IMG/VR virus record: IMGVR_UViG_3300013307_000019
Source of the DNA: an uncultured virus (IMG/VR IMGVR_UViG_3300013307_000019)
Taxonomy: Duplodnaviria; Heunggongvirae; Uroviricota; Caudoviricetes
DNA: 64,000 nt
Reading direction: 5' to 3' (one strand)
In this document: one piece after another, positions 26,661-42,825 of the stretch
Layout of the letters: each line of letters opens with the position of its first letter
How positions within the stretch are numbered: position 1 is the stretch's first letter
The notes under the pieces: model-generated
Databases searched by the model: none
What the model was told of the DNA's origin: nothing
What the model saw: the letters and a program-made list of their open reading frames with translations, nothing else
Program-made: the position numbers and the translations under genes

Positions 26661-26677
26661 AGGCGTATAGGAATAGT

Positions 26678-26989
26678 ATGAACGTTCGACTAGGTTGGTC
26701 CGGGGACATCCACGGCACGTGGACGAAAATGGACGTTGAGGTAGACGAGAATGACCTCAGCAACCATTTCGCGGACGCGGGTGTTCCGGATGGTGCCACC
26801 TTGAGGTATTCTCCTTTGGAGAAGTTCAAGTTGATGTACTCCATTGCGGAGACATTCGTGCAATTGCACAAGATGAGCAGGTTTCCTGACTATTTCGGCC
26901 AAGAAAAAGACAAGCAGGAACTTGCCAACCTCATTGCCTCACGCGACAAGCTGACCAAAGATATCGTGAATAGAGCAGTCAGTGTTTGA
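26678..26989 (+). CDS. hypothetical protein (leaderless)
   Basis: ATG 8 nt after GAGGCGTATA. Confidence 0.6.
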   Translation: MNVRLGWSGDIHGTWTKMDVEVDENDLSNHFADAGVPDGATLRYSPLEKFKLMYSIAETFVQLHKMSRFPDYFGQEKDKQELANLIASRDKLTKDIVNRAVSV

Positions 26990-27131
26990 TTTCGAAGAAA
27001 TGAAGACCTATCTGCGTGGTCAGATTCAGAACGCTCTCAGCATTCCGGACGATGCGTCAGTAGTTCACGCCGCGGACAAGCTGGGCAAGATTCTTTTCAT
27101 TGAGAAGCTGATGGAGGAACGCCGTGGCTGA
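26982..27131 (+). CDS. small hypothetical protein (49 aa)
   Basis: Fills gap and overlaps both neighbours. Confidence 0.45.
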   Translation: MFDFEEMKTYLRGQIQNALSIPDDASVVHAADKLGKILFIEKLMEERRG

Positions 27132-27633
27132 TGTAGAAAATGAGCTACTAGCGTGGGCAAGTGAGGCTCTAGAGCTACGGCACGGCGAGGCTGACGACCC
27201 TCAGGGGAAGGTGTCTCTACCAGAGTTTGAACTGGGTCAGCCCGCCGCCGTAGACATGCTAGCCAGGGTACGTGTCCGCCTAGACCGTGTAGAAGAATTG
27301 CAGTCTAAGGCACGCAGAGCTAAGGGCCGTGTCATGCGTATGCGTGAGGAGGCAGACTTCGAGGCCTCTCTCAAGTATGACGAGGAAATGGCCAACGGCA
27401 AGAATCGTTGGAGAGAGTACGTCACCGCAGATGAGAAGCGTGCAGACGCAATGCTGGCCTCTCTCAGCGAGAAGCGCCAGGCTCACCAACTAAAGCGTCT
27501 GGAATCCGTAGCAACAGAAACCCTAGATGTCATTGGTCAGTGCTATTGGGGACTGGGGAAACTCCGTGAGGACATCCTTCAGATTCTCCGCTTGCACAAC
27601 AACTTCCTGACCACGGAAGAGACCCTGACTTAG
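27124..27633 (+). CDS. helical protein, possible UvsY-like recombination mediator
   Basis: All-helical, YVTAD motif; lies before SSB/resolvase/RecA. Confidence 0.4.
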   Translation: MADVENELLAWASEALELRHGEADDPQGKVSLPEFELGQPAAVDMLARVRVRLDRVEELQSKARRAKGRVMRMREEADFEASLKYDEEMANGKNRWREYVTADEKRADAMLASLSEKRQAHQLKRLESVATETLDVIGQCYWGLGKLREDILQILRLHNNFLTTEETLT

Positions 27634-27713
27634 GGGCCACAAGCCCCTGAAATCTACTAGGCTTGAGTATGAGCCGAGTAGCGCTCCCAGTCAAAACAAA
27701 CAGGAAAAAGAAA

Positions 27714-28676
27714 ATGCCTAGAGTAGAATTCAGTGAAGAGAACGTTAGCAAGAACGATTACAACTACCCCAAGTTCAAGCTAGAAAAGAAGGGTGAGAAG
27801 GCCCGAGTTGCCATTCTCGAATCCCCTTATGCGGAGTATGTTCACAACATCCGCAAGCCAAAGCTAGTCGGTGGAGTTCCCCAGAAGGAATGGAAGACCA
27901 CTAAGTCTGGCGAAAAGTACGAAGACTACGTATACGAGTTCGTTTCCCGCCCAATCTGCCTGGGAGACTATGGAACTCTTCAGTCTGACGGTTCGGACCC
28001 CGACCACTGCCCCGTGTGCGCAGAGGCCAAGCGTTCCGACAAGTTCTTCGGTCCTCAGCGTCGTTTCGCTCTTCACCTGGTGAAGTACGACACTGTGCCA
28101 GGAACCACCACGGTCAAGGAGCCATTCAGTGCTCAGACTCTCATCTACAGCTTCACTAACAAGGTCTACGACGAGCTTTTCGCTCTCAAGGGACAGGGCT
28201 TCGACCTTGTGAACCACGACCTCATCTTCACGTCTGAGAATCCGATGTTCCACGGATACGGAATCCAGCCGTCCATGGAGGCCGAGTGGCAGAAGAGCGA
28301 CGAGCGCAAGAAGTACATCAAGGCGCTCATGAGCAAGGAGAACCTTGCACCTGACCTCGCAATCTTCTGCGGTTCCAAGAAGAGTGAGAAGCAGTTGGAG
28401 TACGACATCCGCGCCGTCAACGAGGCGTGGGAGATTGCTACCGGTGTGGTCAGCGCTTCCGCTCACGACCAGGCTCTCTCCTCTGTAGGTGGGTCGCTGG
28501 ACCTCTCCGCGGGACTGGCTGACATCCTGGGTGACACCACTCCGAACACGGATTCGGACGGTTGGCACAAGGAGCCTGAGGCCGCGACCTCTTTCGAGGC
28601 GCTGGGTATCGGCTCTGACAAGCCAGCCACCGGTGACTCCGCAGACGACATTGAAGCAATGCTTCGGAATCTGTGA
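27714..28676 (+). CDS. single-stranded DNA-binding protein (T4 gp32-like)
   Basis: H...C......CPVC Zn site, acidic C-terminal tail (ADDIEAMLRNL). Confidence 0.7.
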   Translation: MPRVEFSEENVSKNDYNYPKFKLEKKGEKARVAILESPYAEYVHNIRKPKLVGGVPQKEWKTTKSGEKYEDYVYEFVSRPICLGDYGTLQSDGSDPDHCPVCAEAKRSDKFFGPQRRFALHLVKYDTVPGTTTVKEPFSAQTLIYSFTNKVYDELFALKGQGFDLVNHDLIFTSENPMFHGYGIQPSMEAEWQKSDERKKYIKALMSKENLAPDLAIFCGSKKSEKQLEYDIRAVNEAWEIATGVVSASAHDQALSSVGGSLDLSAGLADILGDTTPNTDSDGWHKEPEAATSFEALGIGSDKPATGDSADDIEAMLRNL

Positions 28677-29269
28677 GTATCTACTTCCTAACAGTTGACC
28701 TGGCCAGCAAGTTCTCAGCCGCGTGCTTGACGAACGAAGCTGGCCAGGTTGTCTGGCAGGGCGACTCCATGGGAAAGTCCGCTTCCGAGTGGGTGGACAC
28801 CCTAACCTCCGTAGCTGACCGAATCTCTCAGAGCTTCGAGCTTCTAATTCTTGTTGAGGATGTGCCCTACGGTATCTCCTCGCAGGCGATGACCAAGCCG
28901 GTTCTCCGTCTACAGGGCATGCTCATCCACGCTATGAGCGGCATCCCCTTCTACTTCATCAACCCGAGCACGTGGCAGAAGCGTTTCGACGGGGTAGGAC
29001 GCGCACCCAAGGGCATGAGCAAGACCGATGGAGCCAAGTACCGCATTGCCAAGGCCGCTGAGTGGGCCAAGGAGTACGGCTACGAGCCGCCGAATCTTGT
29101 TCAGAAGTGGCAGGACGAGAATCCTGACCTCAAGCCTCTGAAGAAGTACACCGCTCCACTAGAGAAGAACATGACGGACTACGTAGATGCGTACCTCATG
29201 AACATCTGGCTACAGGAGCACAGAGAAGACTTCACAACTCTTACCGGGGTTCAAGCCCCGATGATTTAA
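28673..29269 (+). CDS. RuvC-like Holliday junction resolvase
   Basis: TVDLA, ILVED, INPSTWQ, DYVDA acidic RNase H-fold motifs. Confidence 0.7.
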   Translation: MSIYFLTVDLASKFSAACLTNEAGQVVWQGDSMGKSASEWVDTLTSVADRISQSFELLILVEDVPYGISSQAMTKPVLRLQGMLIHAMSGIPFYFINPSTWQKRFDGVGRAPKGMSKTDGAKYRIAKAAEWAKEYGYEPPNLVQKWQDENPDLKPLKKYTAPLEKNMTDYVDAYLMNIWLQEHREDFTTLTGVQAPMI

Positions 29270-29278
29270 GGACGTGCC

Positions 29279-30508
29279 ATGAGCGCAGATTTCGCCGCCG
29301 CACTAGCCCAAGTTCAGAAGAAGTACAAGACCGGCGTGGGGCCAATCAGCAAGATTGCGCAGGAAGCAACCTTCATCACGACCGGCAACCTAGCCATTGA
29401 CTTCATCGTTGGTGGAGGATTCCCGCTGGGCAGACAGGTTGAGCTTGCGGGGCCACCATCGTCTGGAAAGACTTCGGTAGCGCTTCAGTGTGCCGCGGAG
29501 TTGCAGAGGATCATCCTTTCCGGTGGCGATGCGAGCAAGGGTATCAAGGCAGACGACAAGATTCTGTATATGGATTATGAGCAGACCATCGACCAGGATT
29601 ACTGCAAGAGTCTTGGCTTGGATATCGATGATGACAGCTTCCTTCTGTGCCAGCCCGACACTCTTGAGGATGGAGCCAACCTGGCTATCAACCTCATTGA
29701 GACCGGGTACATTCGCATGGTCATCTGGGACTCTGTAGCGTCCATGATGCCCTCTGCCAAGGCGCAGGCAGAGATTGGGAAGAGCCTTCCCGCTGTTCAG
29801 GCCAAGCTCATGAGCGATCTTGGTCAGAGGCTCAATCCTCTGCTATATCAGCACAACACCCTGAACATCTGGGTCAACCACCTTAAGGAAATGCTGGACA
29901 TGACGGGCCGCAGGCCCGCTCACCTAGGACCGAAGATGGGCACGCCCGGTGGCGTGGCGCTGAAGTTCTACGCCTCTGTGCGAATCGAGTTCAAGCAGAT
30001 CGGCAATATCAAAGAGAAGATTATTGACCCGCTGACCGGCCTGGAAGTAGAGATTCCCGGAGCCACCAACGTTCTCGTGAAGGTCACGAAGAACAAGGTA
30101 GCACCGCCGTTCAAGCAGGCCGAGGTACGTGTCCGGTTCGGGCGCGGGTTCGACAACTTCTGGACAGCCGTGCAGGTTCTCATTGCCAGCAAGGAAATCA
30201 TGTACTCGCAGGGGTACTACTACTTCCACAAGGTGGAGGAAGCAGGCCTTGCCCCAGAGTGGATGCCGCGTGCGCAAACTGGACAGCAGAGGGCCAACCT
30301 CCGTACGGACCCGATTCTTCTCAAGGCCGCAGACGAGCACCCTGAGTGGAGGCGCGAGGTCATCGACTACGCCGCCAAGTTCATGCGGGAGAATATGTCT
30401 ATCCGTGCAGTCTCCCCGCAGGAGCAGGAAGAGCTTGAGGCTCACGAAGCCGAAATCCGAGAAATCCTGCCCGTGCCGGAAGATGACGAGCACCGCTTGA
30501 CTTTCTAG
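29279..30508 (+). CDS. recA: RecA-like recombinase
   Basis: TG...D...GGGFP.GR..E..GPPSSGKT, DSVA, PGG.ALKFYASVR, KNKVAPPFK. Confidence 0.95.
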   Translation: MSADFAAALAQVQKKYKTGVGPISKIAQEATFITTGNLAIDFIVGGGFPLGRQVELAGPPSSGKTSVALQCAAELQRIILSGGDASKGIKADDKILYMDYEQTIDQDYCKSLGLDIDDDSFLLCQPDTLEDGANLAINLIETGYIRMVIWDSVASMMPSAKAQAEIGKSLPAVQAKLMSDLGQRLNPLLYQHNTLNIWVNHLKEMLDMTGRRPAHLGPKMGTPGGVALKFYASVRIEFKQIGNIKEKIIDPLTGLEVEIPGATNVLVKVTKNKVAPPFKQAEVRVRFGRGFDNFWTAVQVLIASKEIMYSQGYYYFHKVEEAGLAPEWMPRAQTGQQRANLRTDPILLKAADEHPEWRREVIDYAAKFMRENMSIRAVSPQEQEELEAHEAEIREILPVPEDDEHRLTF

Positions 30509-30591
30509 TTTTTGAGGCGTATAAGTTGTAGTGGGTCGGTCTCTTTCTTGAAGGGTCGGAGACCGACCCGCCTACTAATTAAGGAGCCTGC

Positions 30592-31752
30592 ATGGTTGCT
30601 TTCGACATCATGAAGAGCAAGTTGCTCACGCTGGACGATGTTTCTGACCGCATCGGTAAGACAGAACCGCTGGGACAGGCTTACGTATCCAACGAGGACA
30701 AGATTACCTTCGCCTTCGAGCCTACCTGGTGGCTGGGCATTGACGAGAAGGACGGCACCGAGTTGGTGGATGCCGTTATCAGCGTCAACAACAGCGACTA
30801 CCAGTTGACCAAGGACGCCGCGCTTCAGGCCGGTTCTGTCTTCGGTTACCCCGGCAAGCTGGCCAAGGACACCCCATCTACGCTCTTGGAGCAGAACCTC
30901 AACTACTGGTGGGGACCGGGCATGGGTGATAGTGACTTCAACATGCTCACGACCGGCAAGGATCAGTCAGTGGCGGCATTTACCCGTCCCACCATCCAGC
31001 CATTCTCCAACAATCTTCTGTTGGAGGAGGTAGTGAACGGTATCCACGAGCGCTACGGAAACGTACCTGTGTTCGCAGATTACAAGTTCAACCACTCGCT
31101 GATTAGAACAGACATTCGACTCATCGTGCCGGAAATCCTGCGTCACATCAGCAACGGAGGCATGAATGATGTGCCTCACGGCCAGCAGGACGAGTGGAGT
31201 GGTGGCATCCATCTGACGAATTCGCTCATCGGCAAGAGTCAGACCAAGTTGGAGACCTATCTCTTCCGCTGGTGGTGCACCAATGGGTGCACGACGACTC
31301 TGCGTGACGTAGGCGTGTACAGCCGCCGTGGGGACCATGACCCCAACGACGTGTACGAGTGGGCCGCGAACGCCGTAGATGACGTTCTGGGAGGCTTGGA
31401 GAGCCAGTTCGACCTCATCCAAGCACTGACCGAGCTTCAGCTTGGAGCCAACACGGGTGATGTGGTGGCAGAAATCTTTGACACCTTCCGGATGCCGAAG
31501 AGCCAGCGCCTTCCCGTTGCCGAGGCTTTGCAGGAGGCCGACACGCTGAGCATGTATACGCTCATGAACGCCATCACGCAGACGGCGAACAACCCGGACC
31601 TCTCCGGAGACCGCGTTGACGCTCTGTTGCGCATCGGTGGAGCAATCCCCGGAGCCACGTTCAACGGCATCAAGAAGAAGATTTGGGCAGAGGGCCACAC
31701 GGCCAGCCCGGATGCGCCGAACCCATACGACGTGTCCACAATCGTCCAGTAA
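30592..31752 (+). CDS. DUF932-like protein
   Basis: LTNS..G...LFRWWCTNG motif. Confidence 0.6.
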   Translation: MVAFDIMKSKLLTLDDVSDRIGKTEPLGQAYVSNEDKITFAFEPTWWLGIDEKDGTELVDAVISVNNSDYQLTKDAALQAGSVFGYPGKLAKDTPSTLLEQNLNYWWGPGMGDSDFNMLTTGKDQSVAAFTRPTIQPFSNNLLLEEVVNGIHERYGNVPVFADYKFNHSLIRTDIRLIVPEILRHISNGGMNDVPHGQQDEWSGGIHLTNSLIGKSQTKLETYLFRWWCTNGCTTTLRDVGVYSRRGDHDPNDVYEWAANAVDDVLGGLESQFDLIQALTELQLGANTGDVVAEIFDTFRMPKSQRLPVAEALQEADTLSMYTLMNAITQTANNPDLSGDRVDALLRIGGAIPGATFNGIKKKIWAEGHTASPDAPNPYDVSTIVQ

Positions 31753-31774
31753 GGTCCCGAGCCACTGGACAACG

Positions 31775-31822
31775 AGGACCCTCCCAAAGGCCATGGAGCC
31801 GGGAGGGTCCTCAAACTTTTTC
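31775..31822 (+). terminator. intrinsic terminator
   Basis: GAGGACCCTCCC / GGGAGGGTCCTC 12-bp stem followed by AAACTTTTT. Confidence 0.75.
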
Positions 31823-31908
31823 TAGGGAAAAGTTGACACTCTCAAGGTTTGACCGTATAACTGAGTTAAAGCTGTACCAACTAATCGAAAACCCCTAGGA
31901 GATATCCC

Positions 31909-32214
31909 ATGGCTGTTGTCAAGACTGTCCGCCGTACCGACGATTTTGGAAGCGCAGGCGAGGCCACTCAGGTCCGCTTCTCTGTCGAGGGGCGTGACTA
32001 CGCCATCGACCTGAACAAGCGCAACCGCGAGACCTTCCTCCGTCGCATCGCCCCCTACATCGAGCACGGCCTCTCGCTGGACGAGAGCCGCAACCCTGCC
32101 GCCATCCGCGCATGGGCTGTGGAGAACGGCTACAACGTGACCGACCGTGGCCGCATCCCGTACGGCGTGGAGCAGGCCTACGAGGAGCATTTGGCCACTC
32201 TGAGCGCCGCGTGA
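31909..32214 (+). CDS. lsr2: Lsr2-like nucleoid-associated protein
   Basis: DD...A..VRFSVEG..YAIDL N-domain; AIRAWA.ENGY.V.DRGRIP C-domain. Confidence 0.92.
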   Translation: MAVVKTVRRTDDFGSAGEATQVRFSVEGRDYAIDLNKRNRETFLRRIAPYIEHGLSLDESRNPAAIRAWAVENGYNVTDRGRIPYGVEQAYEEHLATLSAA

Positions 32215-32296: not shown

Positions 32297-32336
32297 ATAA
32301 GTATCAAGTTCGAAACCAACCGAGAGGAGCAAGACT

Positions 32337-33679: not shown

Positions 33680-33864
33680 CTCATTACTCACGTGGACAGC
33701 AAGCACAAATCCGCAAGCGCATTCGACTTCGCGGAACTCACAACTTCACAGCCAAGGACAAGAAGTGCATCGCTTGCGGACACTTCTTCGGAGGGCCAGC
33801 CTGTATCCACACGGTTGAAGAGAATCAAGAAATTCTTCACCAGTTCGGGTTGACAACCGAATAA
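33676..33864 (+). CDS. small Cys/His protein
   Basis: TTGA overlap; CIACGH....C.H. Confidence 0.5.
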   Translation: MTHYSRGQQAQIRKRIRLRGTHNFTAKDKKCIACGHFFGGPACIHTVEENQEILHQFGLTTE

Positions 33865-33866
33865 CC

Positions 33867-33876
33867 GAGGCGTATA
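33867..33876 (+). promoter_or_regulatory. class II (phage-sigma) promoter motif heading the tRNA/ncRNA operon
   Basis: GAGGCGTATA; one of about 19 related copies in the window. Confidence 0.65.
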
Positions 33877-33973
33877 GTAGAGATATAACAACTTCACAGA
33901 CAGCGCGAAAAGTCGTCAGGGACTTCCACCACACAGAATGTGGTTAATCAGGCATTTAGACCGGATAGCGCTC

Positions 33974-34045
33974 GGGCCAGTCTCCGAGGTCTCCTTTCCT
34001 TGGTTGGTAGCTTACGGTTGGTAAATCCGGAGGCTGGCCCCTTTT
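33974..34045 (+). ncRNA. hairpin sRNA antisense to TACCAACC-SD leaders
   Basis: 13-bp stem 33974-33986/34028-34040; loop carries CTCCTTTCCTTGGTTGGTAG and a second GGTTGGTA. Confidence 0.65.
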
Positions 34046-34046
34046 C

Positions 34047-34128
34047 GCCCCCTTGGTGGAATGGAAGACACGGCAGATTCAAAACCTGCTACCTAAAGGG
34101 TGTGAGGGTTCAAGTCCCTCAGGGGGTA
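34047..34128 (+). tRNA. tRNA-Leu(CAA)
   Basis: Cloverleaf, long variable arm, GTTCAAGTCC. Confidence 0.9.
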
Positions 34129-34170
34129 CAAAGTCAAGTAGGGGGAAAGCAGAAGATAGCCCTACTGGCT

Positions 34171-34245
34171 GGATGGAGCGGCACTTTCAAGTAACTACTA
34201 AAAATAGTCGCTCACGCATCATCCGGCAAGAGGGCCGCTCCATCC
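34171..34245 (+). ncRNA. hairpin RNA with 12-bp perfect stem and 51-nt loop
   Basis: GGATGGAGCGGC / GCCGCTCCATCC. Confidence 0.45.
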
Positions 34246-34271
34246 GAAATTCATGTACGATAGTTGAATAT

Positions 34272-34343
34272 GCATCCTTGGTGTAAAGGTGAGCACAAGA
34301 GCTTCCAAACCTCTTAGAGTGGGTTCGAGTCCTACAGGATGTG
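34272..34343 (+). tRNA. tRNA-Trp(CCA)
   Basis: Cloverleaf; loop TTCCAAA; G73. Confidence 0.8.
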
Positions 34344-34368
34344 CGAGAAAATTGAATATAGACGGTGA

Positions 34369-34443
34369 CGCGGGGTAGGGCAGTTAGGTCAGCCCGCTAG
34401 GCTCATAACCTAGAGGCCGTGGGTTCGAATCCCACTCCCGCAA
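34369..34443 (+). tRNA. tRNA-fMet-like (CAT)
   Basis: CGCGGGG start with C1:A72 mismatch; CTCATAA loop. Confidence 0.88.
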
Positions 34444-34485
34444 CGAACCGGGCCACAAGGGTCCGGAATACTGTAAGGTAAGAGC

Positions 34486-34536
34486 ATGACGCATTTTGAG
34501 TACTACCCCGAACTGGAGGACCCAGTGTCGGCTTAG
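34486..34536 (+). other. leaderless uORF MTHFEYYPELEDPVSA ahead of a terminator-like hairpin
   Basis: TAAGGT-6nt-ATG; hairpin 34559-34589 follows. Confidence 0.35.
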
Positions 34537-34609
34537 TGCACCCAAAATGCAGTGCTCTAAGCCTCTTGACAGAAATGTTGGGAGGCTTTAGTCTTGGAAA
34601 AGACGACTA

Positions 34610-34629
34610 GAACTTTCAAAACTCCACAG
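34610..34629 (+). promoter_or_regulatory. boxA-like element
   Basis: GAACTTTCAAAACTCCACAG, 18/20 identical to 40131-40150. Confidence 0.5.
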
Positions 34630-34642
34630 AGGAACACTTAAT

Positions 34643-34717
34643 CGGGATGTAGCTCAGCTTGGCTAGAGCACTCGCTTTGGGAGCGAGGGGTCGCAGGTTC
34701 GAATCCTGTTATCCCGA
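34643..34717 (+). tRNA. tRNA-Pro(TGG)
   Basis: Canonical cloverleaf CGGGATG...TATCCCG A. Confidence 0.92.
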
Positions 34718-34720
34718 CTA

Positions 34721-34788
34721 GTGAGAGGCATGGGTTAGATTCCCATACGGCGACGAGCCGTTAGGCGTAAGTGTACAGCGCCGCTCAC
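34721..34788 (+). ncRNA. circularly permuted tRNA mimic (YrlA-like topology)
   Basis: Order: T arm, closed acceptor stem, TA, D arm; enclosed by GTGAG/CTCAC. Confidence 0.55.
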
Positions 34789-34793
34789 ATTAT

Positions 34794-34865
34794 CCGGTTG
34801 TCGCGTAAGGGTTAGCGCACTAGTTTTGGGAACTAGGGGACGGGTTTCGAGTACCTGCTATCGGA
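34794..34865 (+). tRNA. tRNA-Pro(TGG), divergent second copy
   Basis: CTAGT-TTTGGGA-ACTAG anticodon arm; TTCGAGT T loop. Confidence 0.75.
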
Positions 34866-34997
34866 CGAGAGAAGACAGTTGCTTTCAAATACGGAAGTGG
34901 ACACCTTCTCGTAAGGTCCCTCGCACGAGGGTTCCGGAGAGTGGCCAGTTACGTGGCTGAAGTACATGTGCCAGGAGGTAGGAGCTTGTACACTTAT

Positions 34998-35073
34998 GGT
35001 GTTGTGGTAGACGTTGGTTGTCTAGCTTAGACTGTGAATCTGAGTCTCACGGGTTCAATTCCCGTACATCACC
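34998..35073 (+). tRNA. tRNA-His(GTG)
   Basis: G-1:C73; CTGTGAA loop. Confidence 0.88.
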
Positions 35074-35127
35074 CGCGAGCGTAAGTTGCCGGTAAAATAG
35101 GCCTTTGGGAACTATGAACCGGACCAT

Positions 35128-35202
35128 GCGGATGTGGGGGAGTTTGGAGTCCCCGCCACCCTGTCAAGGTGGAGAACGCGGGTTCAAATCCCGTCTTTCG
35201 CG
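35128..35202 (+). tRNA. tRNA-Asp(GTC)
   Basis: CCACC-CTGTCAA-GGTGG; G73. Confidence 0.9.
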
Positions 35203-35243
35203 CGCAAGTTGACAATCGCCTCAAAGAGGCGTACAAATGATTT

Positions 35244-36033
35244 ACGGGCTTGGCCGATAAGGTACCGCGAGGTACTGAAAGATGGGACGACAACCCATCG
35301 CCATGAAAATGGTAACCCAAGCAATCCGAGTGATTCACTGGTCAGGAGCCAAACACCTGGCCAGCGTCATTCAAGTCACCTGAAGCTCCTCAGGGCCAAC
35401 CGGCGAGAGGAGGCCACCAGTAACGTGCTGTGTGGACAAGGGTTAGACGAGATTGAGGTTCATGAGGAAGGAATAGTAGTCCGAGCCGGTCAAGCAAGGG
35501 CGGATTCCATGAATGACAGAAGTACTGGATCGGCGGGTTCAGGGGAATGTCAGGAGAGATACAAGTAGCCCGACAGCAAAAGTATCCGAGGGTGTGTAGT
35601 ATTCTGGGCCTCAAAAGGGTTCGGAGCTACGCGAGTAAGCACATCCTCCGTCAATAACCGCATCATTAGCTCATTTGGCAGAGCGACTGTATTGGGAACA
35701 GTAGGTAGCTGGTTCAAACCCAGCATGTTTATGCAAAACAAAATCGAAAGACTTACTCAGTCTGGCGTGAAAGTGCCTTAACCCTCGGGCCGTCAGGTAA
35801 CCGAGGCACGGGAAGACTCGAAAGGTCCAACGTGTTGATAGGAAAGTAGCAGGAGTGTAGGGGCTTAGCGGCTCTTCCACGGTTGCAAAATCCGTCGAGT
35901 AATTCCAGACTTAAGGAAGTGGTCAGACCTAAACTGACCAGGCATGACAAGTACGGTGGCGACATCGTGGAGAAGTTGGGAACCAATAATCCAACGAAAG
36001 CTTGTTACGAAAGGCATACTCTCAGCCTTATCA
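35244..36033 (+). ncRNA. large structured RNA, probably GOLLD-type
   Basis: ~790 nt without a credible ORF; ends pair (GATAAGGT 35256-63 / GCCTTATC 36025-32); many hairpins; internal tRNA-like element; flanked by tRNAs. Confidence 0.65.
35660..35735 (+). tRNA. degenerate tRNA-Pro(TGG)-like element inside the large RNA
   Basis: D, anticodon (ACTGT-ATTGGGA-ACAGT) and T arms intact; acceptor stem has a TTT bulge. Confidence 0.6.
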
Positions 36034-36063
36034 CCCTCCGGGGCTTCGAAACCCCCGGAATTT

Positions 36064-36135
36064 GCTCTCATCGTTTAGTGGTTAGGACGCCAGCCTCTCA
36101 CGCTGGTAGCACGGGTTCGAATCCCGTTGGGAGTA
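36064..36135 (+). tRNA. tRNA-Glu(CTC)
   Basis: CCAGC-CTCTCAC-GCTGG. Confidence 0.9.
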
Positions 36136-36246
36136 CGATTCGGTCAACCGCACGCCTCCAACTGCCGGTGGTCACTAGTCGAAAAAGTAGGTGGGGTAGA
36201 CGCAGAAACTCTTGTCTGGGGGGTTCCGAATCAAAACCAGACACTT

Positions 36247-36321
36247 GCTCTCATCGTTTAGTGGTTAGGACGCTGGCCTTTCAAGCCGGTAGCACGGGTT
36301 CGAGTCCCGTTGGGAGTACCA
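36247..36321 (+). tRNA. tRNA-Glu(TTC)
   Basis: Near-duplicate of the preceding tRNA; encoded CCA. Confidence 0.92.
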
Positions 36322-36392
36322 GAGGACGTGTTGTGACGGCGGCACGTTGAAAAAAGGTAGCCCTTTCACACGGGAGCCGAGTCGTCCCATAT

Positions 36393-36475
36393 GCCGTAGC
36401 GCCGAAGTTGGAGAGTCGGGGCGGTCTGTAAAACCGTTGCCATTGGCTGAGTGAGTTCGAATCTCACATGCGGTA
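36393..36475 (+). tRNA. tRNA-Tyr(GTA)
   Basis: CTGTAAA loop, long variable arm. Confidence 0.88.
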
Positions 36476-36605
36476 CAACTACATTCCTGGTCTTTTTCCG
36501 CCAGGGGTGGAAGCGAGATAAGGAAAAGTGACTCTCGCACATGTCCTGGTCAGTACACTGGGGGGCTTTAGGGTCTCCTGGGACGTAAAAAGGACCAACC
36601 AATAC

Positions 36606-36683
36606 GGCACCTTAGCTCAGTTGTGGTATTAGAGCGGTGGATTGAAAACCCACAGGTCACCGGTTCGACTCCGGTAGGTGTCA
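36606..36683 (+). tRNA. tRNA-Phe(GAA)
   Basis: TTGAAAA loop, cloverleaf. Confidence 0.9.
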
Positions 36684-36901
36684 CGCAGGAAGACGCTAGC
36701 CTTCCTAATCCGTACAGACGCCGTAGGCGCGCTAGGGTACTGTCTAGTACGGGTCTCCATAACCGGTCGAGGCAATGACACGGAGGGGGAGTCTTGTGCG
36801 GAGGCGCACAGAGTCTTAAAGGTTTGAGAAGCGCTGTCGCCAGTTGCAGATACGGACCAAGTAGGGCTTTGTACGCTGACCAATCAAGCTCCCCCGCATA
36901 T

Positions 36902-36983
36902 GGCTTCTTGGTGGAATTGGTATACACGCTGGTCTTAGGAACCAGTGCCGCAAGGCATAAGAGTTCGAGTCTCTTAGGAGCTA
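36902..36983 (+). tRNA. tRNA-Leu(TAG)
   Basis: CTGGT-CTTAGGA-ACCAG, variable arm. Confidence 0.9.
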
Positions 36984-37087
36984 CGTCGTAAAAGGAATAT
37001 GTAACTTGTTATCGGGTACCCGCTGTAGCTGAGACAAGCCCTATCCCGGAGGACCCTAATCAGCGGTGGGTTCTCCACGAACACTTT

Positions 37088-37170
37088 GCACGTATGGTGA
37101 AATGGTAGACACGCCAGCTTGAGGGGCTGGTGCCCGCAAGGGCGTGCTGGTTCGAGTCCAGTTATGTGCA
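37088..37170 (+). tRNA. tRNA-Leu(GAG)
   Basis: CCAGC-TTGAGGG-GCTGG, variable arm. Confidence 0.9.
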
Positions 37171-37199
37171 CGCGAAAGTAGTGTTGTATACTGAGCACC

Positions 37200-37234
37200 G
37201 CCCCCGGTCACTGCAAATGGCCGGGGGTTTTCTT
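37200..37234 (+). terminator. intrinsic terminator ending the first tRNA block
   Basis: CCCCCGGTCA / TGGCCGGGGG plus TTTTCTT. Confidence 0.8.
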
Positions 37235-37317
37235 GTTTCTGGGGTTTGACAACCGTATAGTCTTACGTATAGGGTAATTGCAGGCACAGAGAGTGCCGCT
37301 AATTGAAGGAGAAACAT

Positions 37318-37524
37318 ATGAAGCAGAAGATTCTTGCCGGTCTCGCTACCGCGGGCATCGTCACGGCCCTCGTGTTCGTTGGAGCCGCTGAGGCCAACGC
37401 AAAGACGACCGTGCCGGTTCCCAACCCCACCGCACCGATTGTGACCCCGGACGAGGCTCACTCGCTTCTTCCCTCTCCATACGGCACGGGTACCGTTTGG
37501 GGAGGAACGCCCTGGACTCCGTAA
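37318..37524 (+). CDS. small secreted protein
   Basis: Signal peptide (MKQKILAGL...AEANA); TTGACA promoter at 37246; SD AAGGAG. Confidence 0.65.
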   Translation: MKQKILAGLATAGIVTALVFVGAAEANAKTTVPVPNPTAPIVTPDEAHSLLPSPYGTGTVWGGTPWTP

Positions 37525-37538
37525 GCTCCTAGACATCA

Positions 37539-37569
37539 ACCCCTGGTCCTCTGTGACCAGGGGTTTTTG
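37539..37569 (+). terminator. intrinsic terminator
   Basis: ACCCCTGGTC / GACCAGGGGT plus TTTT. Confidence 0.8.
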
Positions 37570-37644
37570 CTTTTGTGGGCTATGAGGCGTAAAGAAAAGG
37601 TATGCTGGAAGGAATAGTGCCAGCCATTACCCAAGGAGTTCCAA

Positions 37645-37881
37645 GTGTCAAGGTTGAGTGAAAGACTCAAGGAAGCCAAGAATCCAACCAAGAAGTCGAA
37701 TATGGACCTCTGGCTGGAATCCCTCTCTGACGAGGACCGCAAGGCCGTTCTGGACGCCGCAAAGGACGAGAACCTCAAGAACTACACGCTTTACGGAATC
37801 CTCCGTCAGGAGGGCTTGAAGGTCTCTAAGGATACCTTTATCAAGTGGCGTGACGCACAACTGGGAGTGATGGTCGTATGA
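37645..37881 (+). CDS. small helical protein (possible DNA-binding)
   Basis: SD AAGGAG; coupled to the phosphoesterase. Confidence 0.65.
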   Translation: MSRLSERLKEAKNPTKKSNMDLWLESLSDEDRKAVLDAAKDENLKNYTLYGILRQEGLKVSKDTFIKWRDAQLGVMVV

Positions 37882-39089
37882 GCCTGTCAGACGCGCTAGA
37901 CGCCGCTAAGACGAAAGCACTCGCCGCTATCAAGGCAGACGAGGAAATCATCTACACGTCGGACGGCGAAGTTCTGTCCGCAAGTCTCATGATGGCTTCC
38001 GCCTGGGGCGAGGATGACTGGAAGGCCTGGCTAGAACTGAAGGGCACCAACCCTGAGGAAGTCACCTTCACCTTCGGTGTGACGAGCAACCCTAACGGCG
38101 GCTACTGGAACAAGCTCCTCAACGTCAAGTACACGAACAAGATTTTGGGTGACGAGGTTCCCGCTTGGCCCGTCATTCAGCCTTCGCGTAAGCAGTACAA
38201 GATTACGCCGGTAGTGCGGAGCCGCAAGAACTCCAAGTTCAAGACCGCCGTAGTCGGGGCTGACACGCAGATTGGGTTCGACATGGACCCACAGGGCAAC
38301 CTCACGCCGTACCACGATGACGCGGCCATGGACATCTTCAGTCAGATTGTCCAGATGGAGGACCCGGACGTTACTGCGCTCGCAGGAGACATCATTGACC
38401 TGACCGAGCAGGGCCGGTGGGTGCAGGAAGCAAGATTTGCTCACACGACCCAGCCTTCTCTTGACCGCACACGCGAATTCGCCGCAGACCTGAGAGCCAG
38501 GACTTCCGGCAAAATCATCTTTATCGAGGGAAACCACGACAAGCGGTTCCAAGGCTTCATGGAAGCCAACGCCAAGAGCGCCATGGGACTCAAGAAGGCA
38601 GGCTACCCAGACTCCTGGCCCGTCATGAGCGTGCCAAATCTTGTCGGTCTGGATGACTTCGACATCGAGTACATCGACGCCTATCCCGCAGGGGCTTACT
38701 GGCTCACCAACGACCTCAGAATCATCCACGGCACCAAGAGCGTGTCCAAGGGTTCTACGGCCTCTCAGTACGCCAACGAGACTCCTCACCTATCAACGAT
38801 CTTCGGGCACAGCCACAGGCTAGAAGTTCAGAGCAAGACAATCTTCGACCGAGCCGGAAAGATTCGGACGATGAACGTAAACCCCGGCTGTCTGTGTCGA
38901 GTTGACGGCATGGTTCCCGGAGTTCACGGAGCACGCCACCTAGACGGATCAAAAGCTACGTACTGGGAGAACTGGCAACAGGGCGTGACAGTGGTAAGGT
39001 TCAAGGAGAGCGGAGAGTTCTTCGTAGAACTGATTCAGATTGACGACGGCGTAGCGTTCCACCTGGGACAAGAATTGAGAGCATCATGA
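37878..39089 (+). CDS. calcineurin-like metallophosphoesterase
   Basis: D.Q, GDIID, GNHD, HG, GHSH motifs. Confidence 0.85.
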   Translation: MSLSDALDAAKTKALAAIKADEEIIYTSDGEVLSASLMMASAWGEDDWKAWLELKGTNPEEVTFTFGVTSNPNGGYWNKLLNVKYTNKILGDEVPAWPVIQPSRKQYKITPVVRSRKNSKFKTAVVGADTQIGFDMDPQGNLTPYHDDAAMDIFSQIVQMEDPDVTALAGDIIDLTEQGRWVQEARFAHTTQPSLDRTREFAADLRARTSGKIIFIEGNHDKRFQGFMEANAKSAMGLKKAGYPDSWPVMSVPNLVGLDDFDIEYIDAYPAGAYWLTNDLRIIHGTKSVSKGSTASQYANETPHLSTIFGHSHRLEVQSKTIFDRAGKIRTMNVNPGCLCRVDGMVPGVHGARHLDGSKATYWENWQQGVTVVRFKESGEFFVELIQIDDGVAFHLGQELRAS

Positions 39090-39394
39090 CTGACGAGAAG
39101 AAGCCGCTCCTTAGCGGAGACTACGGGCTTACCCTGACCTACCTCAACGAAGACCTCGCATGGGGCATGAAGGTGTGGCGCGAGAACGGGATTCCTGTGT
39201 ACCTCTACGAGGTTCACTACCGCGACGACGAGCACCCGGAGCCTATCTATGTCCGCGAGAAGATGGTAGGAGACCCAGAGGGCGCAACCAACTCTAGCGA
39301 AATGACGGTGGTACCCAGCCTGGTGAAGCGTCTGGTTCTTCTTCTCACAGATGAGGACTTCAGAAACAAGCTTCGAGTTCTTGGTTCCGACTGA
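39086..39394 (+). CDS. hypothetical protein
   Basis: ATGA overlap. Confidence 0.6.
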   Translation: MTDEKKPLLSGDYGLTLTYLNEDLAWGMKVWRENGIPVYLYEVHYRDDEHPEPIYVREKMVGDPEGATNSSEMTVVPSLVKRLVLLLTDEDFRNKLRVLGSD

Positions 39395-39438
39395 CCTAAG
39401 GCGTATATCTAAATAATCGCTCGGGAAGGGGAACTACC

Positions 39439-39594
39439 ATGAGAGCAACATTCGATGATGAGGTTAACGCCTACCACTTCAGTTCTGAGGAGCTTCGTCC
39501 GGGCGAGGTAGTGAAGACTATCAACCTGGGTTCTCGCAACGTAGTACTGGATATCGACCGCAATGGCCGCATCGTGGGTGTAGAGGTTTTCTGA
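39439..39594 (+). CDS. DUF2283-like small protein (51 aa)
   Basis: MRATFDDEVNAYH...VVLDIDRNGRIVGVEV pattern. Confidence 0.65.
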   Translation: MRATFDDEVNAYHFSSEELRPGEVVKTINLGSRNVVLDIDRNGRIVGVEVF

Positions 39595-39620
39595 TGTCTA
39601 CAACTACCGATAGTAAGTCT

Positions 39621-39905
39621 ATGGATGCCGTTGTAGACCCGGCGCTTGAAGCCGAAATCGAAGAAGTATCGGTCACGGAACTCCCCGCCGTGGGACAGTT
39701 CGTCGCGTGCGAGGCCTGCCCGCACACGGACCACGTAGGGAAGCCGTGGGGACTCCGGTCCTACATGTTCTTCTACTTCAAGGACGGCCTCTTGGCCTAC
39801 TGCAAGCACCACGGAGAAATCTTCCAAGAGAAGCTTGAAGAGGCTGGCGGCATCCTGGTTATGGACACGCGGTACCTCCTCATCGAGAACCGCCTCAAGG
39901 ATTAG
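39621..39905 (+). CDS. Zn-binding hypothetical protein
   Basis: CEAC...L.YCKHHG; ATG 6 nt after CGATAGT. Confidence 0.6.
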   Translation: MDAVVDPALEAEIEEVSVTELPAVGQFVACEACPHTDHVGKPWGLRSYMFFYFKDGLLAYCKHHGEIFQEKLEEAGGILVMDTRYLLIENRLKD

Positions 39906-39941
39906 TGGCCACGTGCCAGATTTTAGTGTATAGTGGATGTC

Positions 39942-40013
39942 ATGAGTATTCAGTCAACGAATCAGAAGCGCGGAGCGACCATCGTCGTATCCGGCGCTGA
40001 GAGGCGTACCTGA
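39942..40013 (+). other. leaderless uORF MSIQSTNQKRGATIVVSGAERRT ahead of a terminator
   Basis: TATAGT-7nt-ATG; terminator 40036-40078 follows. Confidence 0.45.
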
Positions 40014-40035
40014 AGACTTAGAACCAGTCTACTAG

Positions 40036-40078
40036 GAGCCTCTGAAAGCAAAAAAGTTTTCAGAGGCTCTTGCTTTTC
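40036..40078 (+). terminator. terminator/attenuator hairpin
   Basis: GAGCCTCTGAAAG / TTTTCAGAGGCTC plus TTGCTTTT. Confidence 0.65.
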
Positions 40079-40130
40079 CTCCGAGAAAGGCGTAAGTTTT
40101 AGACATCAGCCACCTACGGGTGAGCAACAA

Positions 40131-40150
40131 GAACTTTGAGAACTCCACAG
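40131..40150 (+). promoter_or_regulatory. boxA-like element
   Basis: GAACTTTGAGAACTCCACAG, resembling actinobacterial rrn leader TTTGAGAACTCAA.AG; short hairpin upstream. Confidence 0.55.
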
Positions 40151-40223
40151 TGGAAATCCGAGCGGGACAGTAGTCCGGGCCTGAGCCAAGAAAGCTTTCA
40201 GGTACAACTAGTCTGCCCGCATT

Positions 40224-40313
40224 GGTGATGTGGCCGAGAGGCTTATGGCGCTCGCTTGGAAAGCGAGTAGAGTAGTGACCCTACTCTCGCAGGTTCAAAT
40301 CCTGTCATCACCG
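40224..40313 (+). tRNA. tRNA-Ser(GGA)
   Basis: Long variable arm, G73. Confidence 0.92.
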
Positions 40314-40391
40314 CGCGTATAAGGGACTCGTATGCCGAGGGCAACTACATCGGTTGTGCCAACCATATGGCGGGTTGGCCCTTATACCTAT

Positions 40392-40476
40392 GGAGATATG
40401 GTCGAGAGGCTTATGGCATCTGTTTCGAAAGCAGACGTACCGGAAGGTACCGGGGGTTCAAATCCCTCTATCTCCG
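40392..40476 (+). tRNA. tRNA-Ser(CGA)
   Basis: Long variable arm, G73. Confidence 0.92.
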
Positions 40477-40526
40477 CAGGGTCAGGGGTGTAGTGACGAC
40501 CGTGTTGTTGCATCTACTGACCATTT

Positions 40527-40612
40527 GGTGGGTTGGCAGAGAGGCTTATTGCGTCACTCTTGAAAAGTGAAAGTACCGGAAGGTACCGGGGGTTCAAATC
40601 CCTCACCCATCG
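40527..40612 (+). tRNA. tRNA-Ser(TGA)
   Basis: Long variable arm, G73. Confidence 0.92.
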
Positions 40613-40690
40613 CAATGCAAACCGCCCCTGCGGGGGTATGGAGCAGAAATCCAGTTACTAGTGCTGGTACGGTAGTGCGTACGACTGCCG

Positions 40691-40766
40691 AGGACAGTAG
40701 TATAGTGGCCGATTACCCCGCACCTTAACAATGCGGTAACGCGGGTTCAAATCCCGCCACGTCCTG
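40691..40766 (+). tRNA. atypical tRNA with 9-nt anticodon loop (identity undetermined)
   Basis: CCGCA-CCTTAACAA-TGCGG; GCGGG-TTCAAAT-CCCGC; bulged acceptor stem. Confidence 0.6.
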
Positions 40767-40769
40767 AAT

Positions 40770-40856
40770 GGTGATATGGCCGAGAGGCTTATGGCTCAAC
40801 TTTGCTAAAGTTGCGTAGCAGAAATGCTACCGGGGGTTCGAATCCCTCTATCACCG
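40770..40856 (+). tRNA. tRNA-Ser(GCT)
   Basis: CAACT-TTGCTAA-AGTTG, variable arm. Confidence 0.92.
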
Positions 40857-40987
40857 CAATTGGGTTCTCGATAAGCCATTAGGCAATCGTAGGGATGAGT
40901 AGGGTGGCTCCCTACAACACGGTCCTGGTGAGGCGCAGATGCGGCTCAAGCTTCCGAAGCCCAGCCAGTGGAGGGAAGTCGTTTTTT

Positions 40988-41060
40988 GGGTCCATCGTAT
41001 AACGGTTGATTACTGCTGACTCTTACTCAGTTAATCAGGGTTCGATTCCCTGTGGGCCTA
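40988..41060 (+). tRNA. tRNA-Lys(CTT)
   Basis: GCTGA-CTCTTAC-TCAGT. Confidence 0.85.
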
Positions 41061-41061
41061 C

Positions 41062-41176
41062 GAGGGAAGCAAATTGGGAGCGCAGTCAAGTCGGGCGAGC
41101 GGTTGCAAACGCGGACTTATGACCCGGTAGCGTCATGAACTACCGCGCGACTGCCTGGGTTCGAGTCCCAGCCCTT
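41062..41176 (+). ncRNA. tRNA-like RNA with T arm, no D stem and an internal pseudoknot
   Basis: CTGGG-TTCGAGT-CCCAG; GCAGTC/GACTGC arm; ATGAC/GTCAT plus CGGTAG/CTACCG pseudoknot. Confidence 0.5.
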
Positions 41177-41232
41177 AAACACTTGGCCGAAAAGGTCACA
41201 GCGGGGAGTATAGTTGTAGTGGAGGAACTACC

Positions 41233-41958
41233 ATGACAACTACCCCGGACGTGAAGGTTATTACCGTCCAACAGAAAAGCCCGCTACTTGGTCGTAATGT
41301 TGTTCACGACCCGCGTAGCCGAGCTTTCCCCCTACTACTTTCTTCCCCGGTGGACAAGTCCACTTGGAAGAACAAGGTAATTCGTGTCTACGACCCAACT
41401 CCTAATCCCAACCAGGAAATTGGATGTTGCACCGGAGTTGCGAAGTGCATCCAGCTAAATTCGGCTGGAAACCGGGTGAGCAAGAGATTTCTCACTTTCC
41501 GCGTGGGAAGCCGCGTCCTGAACATGTCGGACGCTGTGAAGCTGTACTCTCGTGCTACGGAGATTGACCCGTATGACGGTACCTACCCTCCTACGGACAC
41601 CGGTTCCTCTAGCCTAGCTTCGTGCAAGTCCGCACAAGACTTTGGTATCGCAGGAGCGTACAACTGGATTTTTGGTGGCGCTGACGAGGTAGTTCAGAAC
41701 ATCATGCAGGGTCGCACAATCTCAGTGGGAACCTGGTGGTACGAGGGCATGTTCAACAAGGATTCCAAGGGACGAATTAGGCCCACGGGAGAGAAGGTTG
41801 GCGGTCACCAATGGGCGGTACGCGGATACGATGTAGACCGTGATTGGGTCATGGGTCGGTGCTGGTGGGGAGACTTCCGAGACTTCTGGATTGCCCGCAC
41901 AGACCTTCAGTCCCTTCTCTTGGACGATGGGGATGCACATTTCCAGAAGTCCATTTAA
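41233..41958 (+). CDS. papain-like cysteine protease domain protein
   Basis: NQ.IG.CTG (oxyanion Q, catalytic C), GGHQ...GYD, WG. Confidence 0.7.
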   Translation: MTTTPDVKVITVQQKSPLLGRNVVHDPRSRAFPLLLSSPVDKSTWKNKVIRVYDPTPNPNQEIGCCTGVAKCIQLNSAGNRVSKRFLTFRVGSRVLNMSDAVKLYSRATEIDPYDGTYPPTDTGSSSLASCKSAQDFGIAGAYNWIFGGADEVVQNIMQGRTISVGTWWYEGMFNKDSKGRIRPTGEKVGGHQWAVRGYDVDRDWVMGRCWWGDFRDFWIARTDLQSLLLDDGDAHFQKSI

Positions 41959-42013
41959 GTAAACCAGAGATTTGCGAACTAGCGGGGTTGCTCTTAAACT
42001 AACTCCCTGCCAC

Positions 42014-42084
42014 GGGCTATTGGTGAAGAGGTATCACAAGACACTTCCAATGTTTTATCGCGGGTTCGATTCCCGCATAGCCCT
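42014..42084 (+). tRNA. tRNA-Gly(TCC)
   Basis: CTTCCAA loop, U73. Confidence 0.9.
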
Positions 42085-42258
42085 CAGCGGTCACTTGAAG
42101 GATGGACAAGTATCAATCTCCAGAGGCGATTGTTAGGACTCCTATATCCTAAGCAACTAGGACAGTGACAGTAGCTCGGGAAGGTTGCAATTCCATGGGG
42201 CTACGGCGAATCCCATCGTCAAATGCAATACCCCGGGCACACGGGGTAACGGGAATTT

Positions 42259-42329
42259 GGGATATTGATGTAATGGTAGCCTACGACCTTGCCATGGTTG
42301 TCGCGCGGGTTCGATTCCCGCATATCCCT
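42259..42329 (+). tRNA. tRNA-Gly(GCC)
   Basis: TTGCCAT loop, U73. Confidence 0.88.
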
Positions 42330-42824: not shown

Positions 42825-42825
42825 A

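Follow-up and report, generated by a model that had tools for sequence, protein, structure and literature searches.

What could be the role of an RNA hairpin that stands directly before the first tRNA gene of a phage, and whose loop carries the exact complement of a sequence found in the leaders of other genes of the same phage? This question is raised by positions 33974-34045 of the 64,000 nucleotides analyzed here (the window). The window comes from a large soil phage with a genome of the siphovirus type (G+C 52-58%). Besides tail genes, it contains a replication module (SNF2 helicase, DnaB, primase-polymerase, PolA and RecA) and at least 39 tRNA genes, located at 34047-48843. In an earlier note on this DNA, it had been proposed that the hairpin belongs to a small RNA that is antisense to a tag shared by the 5' leaders of about ten early genes.

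The hairpin is formed on the + strand by a 13-bp stem, with the 5' arm (GGGCCAGTCTCCG) at 33974-33986 and the 3' arm (CGGAGGCTGGCCC) at 34028-34040. The stem closes a loop of 41 nt (33987-34027) without conserved internal structure. Its 3' arm is separated by 6 nt from tRNA-Leu(CAA) (34047-34129, +), the first tRNA gene of the array, where an RNase P site is expected at the 5' end. The positions that the earlier note had given for the stem, the loop and the tRNA proved correct. The predicted fold has a minimum free energy of -32.8 kcal/mol (z = -3.18) and none of 200 shuffled sequences was equally stable. ARAGORN and the Rfam tRNA model called nothing at 33974-34045, and the 13-pair stem comes without a T-arm. 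No Rfam family was found at the hairpin, neither with cmscan of 33800-34300 (E up to 10) nor in the whole window at the gathering score, and the covariance model of the C4 antisense RNA (Rfam family C4) did not match it in 33800-34300 at E up to 10.

No close DNA relative of the window was found in the phage collection, where the sole DNA-level match was that of tRNA-Trp to Streptomyces phages. A distant blastn search with 33840-34050 gave no match, and the neighboring gene of 301 aa has no relative among viral_contigs. The closest PolA is that of Microbacterium phage Magritte (43% identity), in which the region from the replication genes to the tRNA genes has the same gene order as the window, including tRNA-Leu(caa) followed by tRNA-Trp. 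Relatives were sought with RecA (29279-30508), which led to one viral contig (locus L001, genome G001; 74% identity), and with a two-sequence RecA alignment (A3) as query, which led to 30 metagenome loci. In each of these loci, the DNA 5' of the first tRNA was inspected. A homologous hairpin occurs in three other metagenomic phages: G001 (L001), G002 (L011/L012) and L024. G002 is a 136.5-kb record rated as 100% complete, with a RecA that is 71% identical, and L011 and L012 are the same record. G001 is half a genome, without the small-gene arm that follows the tRNA array, and the contig of L024 stops just after the hairpin. The sample thus comprises four hairpin sequences, three of which have the tRNA in sight, and two genomes with the early arm. 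The distance from the end of the stem to tRNA-Leu(CAA) is 6, 5 and 5 nt in the window, L001 and L011, respectively.

The stem has changed in sequence while its pairing was kept. Pairwise, the arms are 71-73% identical among the four phages. In a MAFFT alignment of the four sequences (A4), standard pairs make up 82.7% of the cells of these 13 pairs, compared to 36-60% for slid partners, and the observed value was reached by 5 of 500 shuffled alignments. Two pairs are altered on both sides. These counts are conservative, since MAFFT mis-registered the loop and 3' arm of L024; when the register of L024 was mended by eye, a third double change (G-C to A-T) came to light. Furthermore, the stems of the window and L024 contain U.G pairs that hold on the + strand alone and would be C.A on the other strand, so that the hairpin structure belongs to an RNA of the + strand. 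As far as four sequences can tell, the covariation of the stem and the strand-specific G.U pairs both point to a + strand RNA.

A covariance model made from the four hairpins (R1) detected no further member in the 377,538 bases of the loci, and an exact search with a 27-nt loop pattern found nothing. Looser loop patterns also matched L003/L040 and L005. These matches were rejected, as they are leaders on the other strand of unrelated contigs without a nearby tRNA. A control with a random 14-mer returned about 180 stretches, from which roughly 0.2-0.5 chance matches follow for a 19-mer; because of this expectation, the matches in L003/L040 and L005 were taken as chance. The three matches of the loop pattern in genome_contigs were likewise rejected, being in unrelated bacteria and set against about 13 expected by chance. 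In the window itself, a strong hairpin (GGGTCGGTCTC...GAGACCGACCC, 30522-30575, +) lies directly 3' of recA and is preceded by a class II-type motif (30516). This hairpin, probably the terminator of recA, gave a weak match to the four-sequence model R1 (12.6 bits, E 1.5).

The sequence of the loop is far better preserved in one part than in the rest. The conserved loop core (33990-34012, +; TCTCCTTTCCTTGGTTGGTAGCT) consists of an anti-SD part, CTCCTTTC, which is followed by an anti-tag part, TGGTTGGTAG. The 14 nt at 33997-34010 (+) are the exact reverse complement of the tag at 59784-59797, a match between the minus strand of the loop and the + strand of the leader that had been reported in the earlier note and is confirmed here. 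Over its 21-23 nt, the core has a mean pairwise identity of 95% among the four phages, while the remaining loop is 47-50% identical and the 100 nt upstream are 53% identical. With neighbors at about 50%, the core is constrained in sequence, beyond what structure demands. Its consensus is CTCCTTTC[CT]0-2TGGTTGGTAGCTT, and both CTCCTTTC and TGGTTGGTAG are invariant in all four loops. The reverse complement of the conserved core reads CTACCAACCA(AG)GAAAGGAG, i.e. the tag plus the Shine-Dalgarno sequence (SD), which is more than the tag alone. The adjoining AGCUU is also conserved, though pairing does not account for it. Presumably, CTCCTTTC resembles the 3' end of the 16S rRNA. No internal pairing of the core is conserved, but its predicted mean unpaired probability is only about 0.5. 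In our judgment, the hairpin element is very probably a conserved structured RNA with a sequence-constrained loop.

Not every part of the loop follows this pattern. A second copy of GGTTGGTA at 34015-34023 (+), which the earlier note had described as a second seed, does match the leader at 32315 over 8 nt. However, this copy is confined to the window, as none of the three relatives has it.

Several more conventional roles for such a hairpin have to be weighed. A minus-strand gene that would use the loop as its own leader, which the earlier note had put forward as a contrary case, was rejected: no start codon or ORF following the minus-strand SD is conserved in the four sequences. There is no ATG, GTG or TTG 5-10 nt past this SD in the window or L011, L001 has a TTG 1-2 nt past it and L024 a frame of four codons. 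No TTGACA was found upstream of the minus-strand tag, where the tRNA gene occupies the position of the promoter. A simple intrinsic terminator is unlikely, given the loop of 41 nt and a terminator scan that makes no call.

A wider alternative sees in the hairpin an element for processing, stability or termination that serves the tRNA precursor or the upstream operon. Its loop would bind a protein or another RNA, and its match to the tag would have no function in trans. After the upstream ORFs, which end at 33864, no other strong hairpin precedes this one, which would suit such an element, as would the fixed distance of 5-6 nt to the RNase P site and the conserved AGCUU that has no pairing role. 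A T-run is found 3' of the stem in the window and L001 but not in L011 and L024, a 41-nt loop is untypical of an intrinsic terminator and the scan makes no call. In 64 kb, about 2e-4 exact 14-mer complements to a repeated motif are expected by chance, and the conserved part of the loop covers precisely the tag plus the SD. We consider it unlikely, with enough in its favor to be taken seriously.

The complement of the loop is a genuine family in the window. When CTACCAACCAAGGA was searched at up to 2 mismatches, 6 matches were obtained against 0.42 expected, a number that none of 100 shuffles reached. They comprise four leaders (59784, 59017, 58312 and 43382), the loop itself on the minus strand and one site in a coding region (5393). 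Six + strand leaders are strongly tagged. The tag at 59784-59797 matches in 14 of 14 positions and lies in the leader of a 50-aa ORF (promoter 59750), and that at 59017-59030 matches in 13 of 14 (promoter 58982). At 58312-58325, CTACCAACCAA provides an 11-nt match (promoter 58277) and at 56900-56913, CTACCAACCA provides one of 10 nt (promoter 56866). The tag at 53176-53189 (CTACCAAACCAAGG; promoter 53142) contains a one-base insertion, and the one at 43382-43395 (GTACCAACCAACGA; 10-nt match; promoter 43349) is situated within the tRNA array. Weaker tags of 8 nt are found at 32315-32328 (ACCAACCG, +), directly before the SD of the 301-aa gene and complementary to the second seed, and at 19768-19781 (ACCAACCA, +; promoter 19727). 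The lengths of all these matches are as the earlier note had described them. The matches of 7-8 nt (20517, 31875, 54084, 19768 and 32315) are individually at chance level, each being too short for significance alone. The strongly tagged genes encode small proteins without a PHROG match. Among the weakly tagged genes, 20540 matches polynucleotide kinase and 31909 is Lsr2-like.

The strong tags and those at 19768 and 32315 stand between a promoter of the form TTGAC-N16-19-TAnnnT and an SD plus ATG. A scan of the + strand for this promoter form returned 18 matches. In 10 of these, a tag-like ACCAAC leader comes next, with SD plus ATG after it. The other eight are untagged (30497, 33850, 34566, 37246, 48299, 49371, 51821 and 55687), from which it follows that the tag is dispensable for promoter function. 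Besides the tag itself, the tagged promoters have similar spacers and an upstream AAAAAGTTTT-like element in common, and so the tagged sites can be understood as repeated promoter-leader cassettes. If transcription is assumed to start about 7 nt past the -10 box, the first 1-2 bases of the tag would fall outside the RNA.

The tag family is retained in a relative. G002 contains nine exact copies of TACCAACCA on the gene strand, all at 22020-32109 in the small-gene arm after the tRNA array, and the lone exact copy on the opposite strand is the hairpin loop. When context is taken into account, ten tag-like sites follow TTGAC promoters and precede SD plus ATG, and an eleventh follows a weaker -35. 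The window and G002 have the -35, the -10 and the tag in common but differ in their promoter spacers. A 9/10 copy of the anti-tag (GGTTGGTAG) was also noticed at G002:C1:26941-26950 (-), in the spacer of a tagged promoter whose own tag follows about 25 nt downstream; this is probably a coincidence. The expectation of the earlier note, that the loop would be conserved in relatives that keep the tag, is borne out by the 95% identity of the core in four phages and by the roughly ten tagged promoters of G002. In the two genomes with both partners, the 10-nt core is invariant in loop and tag alike, which amounts to conservation and not to covariation, and the variable junction within the loop core (C, CT or CCT) does not follow differences between the tags.

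The tag and the hairpin are also absent together. In Magritte, the tag has no exact copy and 7 one-mismatch matches, compared to 10 for a control word, and the hairpin is absent, as tRNA-Leu(caa) abuts a CDS and leaves no room for it. G003, a complete 124-kb relative with a RecA of about 52% identity (the record behind L016/L053), has neither tag nor hairpin. Tag and hairpin co-occur in the two genomes that show both and are jointly missing in two relatives, in what are small numbers.

The more distant clade (L014, L016, L017 and L019) has other CA-rich leaders with AGGTCAAC. Short CA-rich leaders are a general habit of these phages, and the clade of the window is distinguished by the complement in a hairpin. 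In G003, AGGTCAAC occurs 15 times on the gene strand versus 3 times on the opposite strand (control word: 1 and 0). Its complement GTTGACCT is present at L016:1576 and L017:3135, in both cases with a promoter-like site before it and a terminator-like hairpin after it. As evidence for an anti-leader system in this clade, these sites were nevertheless rejected, since three copies on the opposite strand are about chance and the word contains a -35-like TTGACC. At L016 1541-1632 and L017 3055-3200, a conserved intergenic sequence (TGTGTTGACCTACA) is flanked by a promoter-like site on one side and a terminator-like hairpin on the other. This region could be a small RNA; its complement is not enriched.

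The leader of the 301-aa gene helps to tell an RNA element from a DNA element. In G001, the loop copy is accompanied by a tagged leader before the orthologue of this gene only (GCTACCAACGAAAGGA), and the orthologue in G002 is preceded by TTACAACCAACGAAAGGA. The distance from the -10 box to the tag is 18-20 nt in the window and G001 versus 5 nt in G002, and the tag is always directly before the SD. That the tag stays with the SD, together with the eight promoters that lack it, suggests an element of the 5' untranslated region rather than of the promoter. The same leader bears on the idea that early promoters carry the tag as a double-stranded DNA operator to which a phage regulator would bind, the loop then containing an additional, inverted operator. 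In most promoters, the tag does adjoin the start of transcription, and DNA-binding proteins are encoded in the window (a Sigma70_r4 protein, 14058-14810, and an Lsr2-like protein, 31909-32211). However, an operator that keeps to the SD and not to the -10 box is hard to reconcile with this idea, which also leaves unexplained why the loop should have a conserved stem with compensatory changes and strand-specific G.U pairs and why the adjoining anti-SD is conserved. We give the operator very little credence.

Predicted duplexes agree with pairing between the loop and the tagged leaders. With the 23-nt core as query, tagged leaders account for 6 of the 10 best + strand sites of the window. The best single site in the window is the coding site 15965 (-32.2 kcal/mol), and among the minus-strand controls, values down to -25.6 kcal/mol (window) and -25.2 kcal/mol (G002) were obtained. 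When the core was paired with start regions of 32 nt, 10 of the 11 listed leaders gave -19.8 to -27.8 kcal/mol, the remaining one (31909) giving -11.4 kcal/mol; 24 control starts, hand-picked from the ORF list, had a mean of -11.6 kcal/mol (sd 3.7) with a best value of -19.5 kcal/mol. Opening of the loop core costs 7.8 kcal/mol. In the first 40 kb of G002, tagged sites are the top 3 and 7 of the 15 best duplex sites, and the pairing there is contiguous for 10 nt, after which a 3-nt bulge is needed to reach the SD. Queries with the whole 41-nt loop were dominated by long imperfect GC duplexes, and RNAcofold is unable to represent loop-target pairing with the stem closed. In these models, duplex energy alone is not decisive and the concentration of sites on leaders is the signal.

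The energies of the controls also bear on a broader activity, in which the CUCCUUUC part would act as a general anti-SD mimic. It would titrate the SDs of host and phage alike and favor the leaderless genes of the phage, with the tag match being secondary. The anti-SD part is as invariant as this activity would require, the phage has a large class of leaderless genes, and controls with a strong SD do reach the -19.5 kcal/mol mentioned above. Nonetheless, TGGTTGGTAG is just as invariant and would be left without a role, and the advantage of tagged leaders over the controls amounts to about 8-16 kcal/mol. A general mimic is therefore highly improbable in our view.

How would the hairpin RNA be made? 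A promoter is present at 33850-33878 (+), with TTGACA, a 17-nt spacer and TATAGT. It agrees with the host-type consensus in 11 of 12 positions and is overlapped at its -10 box by a class II extended -10 (GGCGTATAGT, 33869). The start of the tRNA-array transcript is expected near 33886, which would make 33886-33973 (+) the 5' part of a leader RNA predicted from this promoter. A similar promoter is found 5' of the hairpin in L001 and L024, and the class II motif is kept in the promoters of the relatives. The earlier note was right to report a class II motif before the hairpin. The motif (gaGGCGTA[TA]A[GA]a) is followed by an ATG 6-7 nt downstream, which defines a class of leaderless genes, and often has a weaker -35. 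Examples are found at 14807, 17974, 23980, 26662, 37586, 45018, 60326 and 62677, and the extended -10 also occurs 5' of the tRNAs at 48318 and 40089. The leader promoter has a host-type -35 and -10, as the tagged promoters do, and a temporal switch is not evident from it. With a promoter of this double kind, the transcription by a phage sigma factor that the earlier note had proposed is a conjecture; the window does encode a protein with a Sigma70 region 4 domain (14058-14810).

The leader itself contains further conserved pieces. A block near its start, AACTTCACAGAC (33890-33901), is near-identical in all four phages (L001 at about 14447, L011 at about 14160 and L024 at about 3890), with the consensus AACTTCA(C/T)AGAC(T)G. 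A second block of 27 nt, GGTTAATCAGGCATTTAGACCGGATAG (33945-33971), is identical to L019 7904-7930, from a distant phage with a RecA of about 52% identity. In both, it is preceded by a small hairpin, the arms of which differ and yet pair (CCACA/TGTGG versus CCAAG/CTTGG). In L019, the 27-nt block is directly 5' of tRNA-Trp, without the big hairpin. Among the four phages and L019, the small hairpin and the 27-nt block are common to the window and L019 only. Another noncoding block (AAGACAAACGGG...CAGCCCCGGCGATCTTGC) is shared by L011 (about 14000-14060) and L017 (about 15990-16040), two diverged phages in which it is found near the start of the tRNA array, after a promoter-like site.

Like an RNA from the spacer of a tRNA precursor, the hairpin is located within the predicted tRNA transcript and adjoins the expected RNase P site. 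From the fixed spacing, its release by RNase P is plausible. The same position could also serve regulation in the reverse direction or in cis: abundant leaders of early mRNAs (or a factor) would bind the loop and thereby govern how far the tRNA-array precursor is read through, processed or kept stable, which would make the hairpin a sensor or attenuator and not a repressor. The complementarity is symmetrical and the regulated partner cannot be read from the sequence; moreover, the hairpin lies between promoter and first tRNA in all cases. Pairing of the loop would, however, leave the 13-bp stem closed, and a conserved alternative, anti-terminator fold was not found in the alignment. For these reasons, a sensor or attenuator seems quite improbable.

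The explanation that we favor is a trans-acting anti-leader RNA, to which we assign a probability of roughly 45%. The hairpin would be the conserved 3' module of a noncoding RNA of roughly 160 nt, the 5' leader of the tRNA-array transcript. With its start near 33886, this RNA would owe its release to RNase P cleavage before tRNA-Leu (34046/34047). The 13-bp stem would keep the large loop open and thereby display the core CUCCUUUC..UGGUUGGUAG. In about ten small early genes with TTGACA promoters, the core would pair with the leader CUACCAACCA of the 5' untranslated region and with the Shine-Dalgarno sequence next to it. We infer that this pairing takes place in vivo and that its direction is repressive: the ribosome-binding site would be occluded and the whole gene class shut off in trans, possibly at a set time. 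The leaderless class II genes, which are without such a leader, would escape. In its strongest form, the proposal describes a master switch, in which rising transcription of the tRNA array yields an RNase P-released RNA that silences the entire early class by means of a 10-nt barcode plus the SD and spares class II. Such an RNA would also exemplify a wider, undescribed class of anti-leader RNAs that recurs in the tRNA operons of large phages. We hold this extended version to be doubtful at present.

Elements of the anti-leader RNA have precedents. The c4 RNA is reported to be a substrate of RNase P. In phages P1 and P7, this antisense RNA of the immI operon binds with its loop sequences around a ribosome-binding site and blocks translation, as described in PMC12197685. 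According to the same source, c4 is a phage-encoded small RNA cut from the leader of a longer transcript, with single-stranded loops that block the ribosome-binding site, as is predicted for the hairpin. In contrast, c4 acts on one operon (icd/ant) as an immunity factor of temperate phages, whereas here about ten separate promoters carry the target and the phage of the window looks lytic. In addition, RNase P makes the 5' end of c4, while it is the 3' end that would come from an RNase P cut at the next tRNA in the present case.

A regulatory RNA as by-product of tRNA-precursor processing, as predicted for the hairpin, is also found in E. coli. There, 3'ETS-leuZ is a 3' trailer derived from the spacer of a tRNA operon that sponges other sRNAs with the help of Hfq. 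The hairpin differs as a 5' leader that is predicted to bind mRNA leaders and not sRNAs, and, to our knowledge, actinobacterial hosts generally do not have Hfq. With such close precedents in the c4 RNA of P1/P7 and the tRNA-spacer sRNAs, the statement in the earlier note that it knew of no description of such a system was too strong. In Gram-positive bacteria, RNAIII and the Rsa RNAs have hairpin loops with C-rich or UCCC motifs that pair with the SD of several mRNAs. The pyrimidine-rich anti-SD in a hairpin loop is shared with these RNAs, which are host-encoded and have short seeds; in the loop studied here, the anti-SD is extended by a 10-nt anti-tag, from which specificity for a class of genes would result.

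Phages that stop the translation of their own early mRNAs, as is predicted here, are known from T4, which employs proteins and not RNA for this purpose. Its nuclease RegB and its repressor RegA shut off early mRNAs via their ribosome-binding sites, and temporal shut-off of early genes in lytic phages is in general known mainly through proteins. The tRNA cluster of T4 also yields stable RNAs, species 1 and species 2, whose function is unknown. They resemble the predicted RNA in being small non-tRNA RNAs that are encoded in a phage tRNA cluster and co-processed with it. There is no sequence relation to the hairpin, and we know of no target complementarity in the T4 RNAs. In a literature search on phage-encoded sRNAs that act on early genes and in passages of the review PMC12197685, no RNA from the leader of a tRNA array that targets a shared leader was found, which is not proof of absence.

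If the anti-leader RNA is real, an RNA made as a by-product of tRNA processing would silence a whole promoter class via a shared leader barcode, which would be a compact and new regulatory logic. It would also provide a function for non-tRNA sequence inside phage tRNA arrays. The simple pairing rule could furthermore serve as an orthogonal translational switch in actinobacteria.

Some other features of the window deserve mention. The tRNA array harbors a full-length GOLLD RNA (35587-36028, +; 220.7 bits, E 3.8e-61), in which a tRNA-like match is nested at 35664-35727, and a gene for a protein with a VapB-like antitoxin domain (46940-47464). The 251-aa protein encoded at 14058-14810 (+), just 3' of the SNF2 helicase, contains a Sigma70 region 4 domain (E 3e-9) and is a candidate phage sigma-like factor by its domain content; the syntenic gene in Magritte is annotated merely as DNA binding protein. 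The Lsr2-like protein at 31909-32211 is of the DNA-bridging type. The early arm includes a gene for nicotinate phosphoribosyltransferase (55722-56891). Finally, a match to the Pistol ribozyme (55453-55521, +) scores 48.7 bits, compared to a gathering score of 34.5, and sits in the early small-gene arm, flanked by small ORFs and the promoter at 55687.
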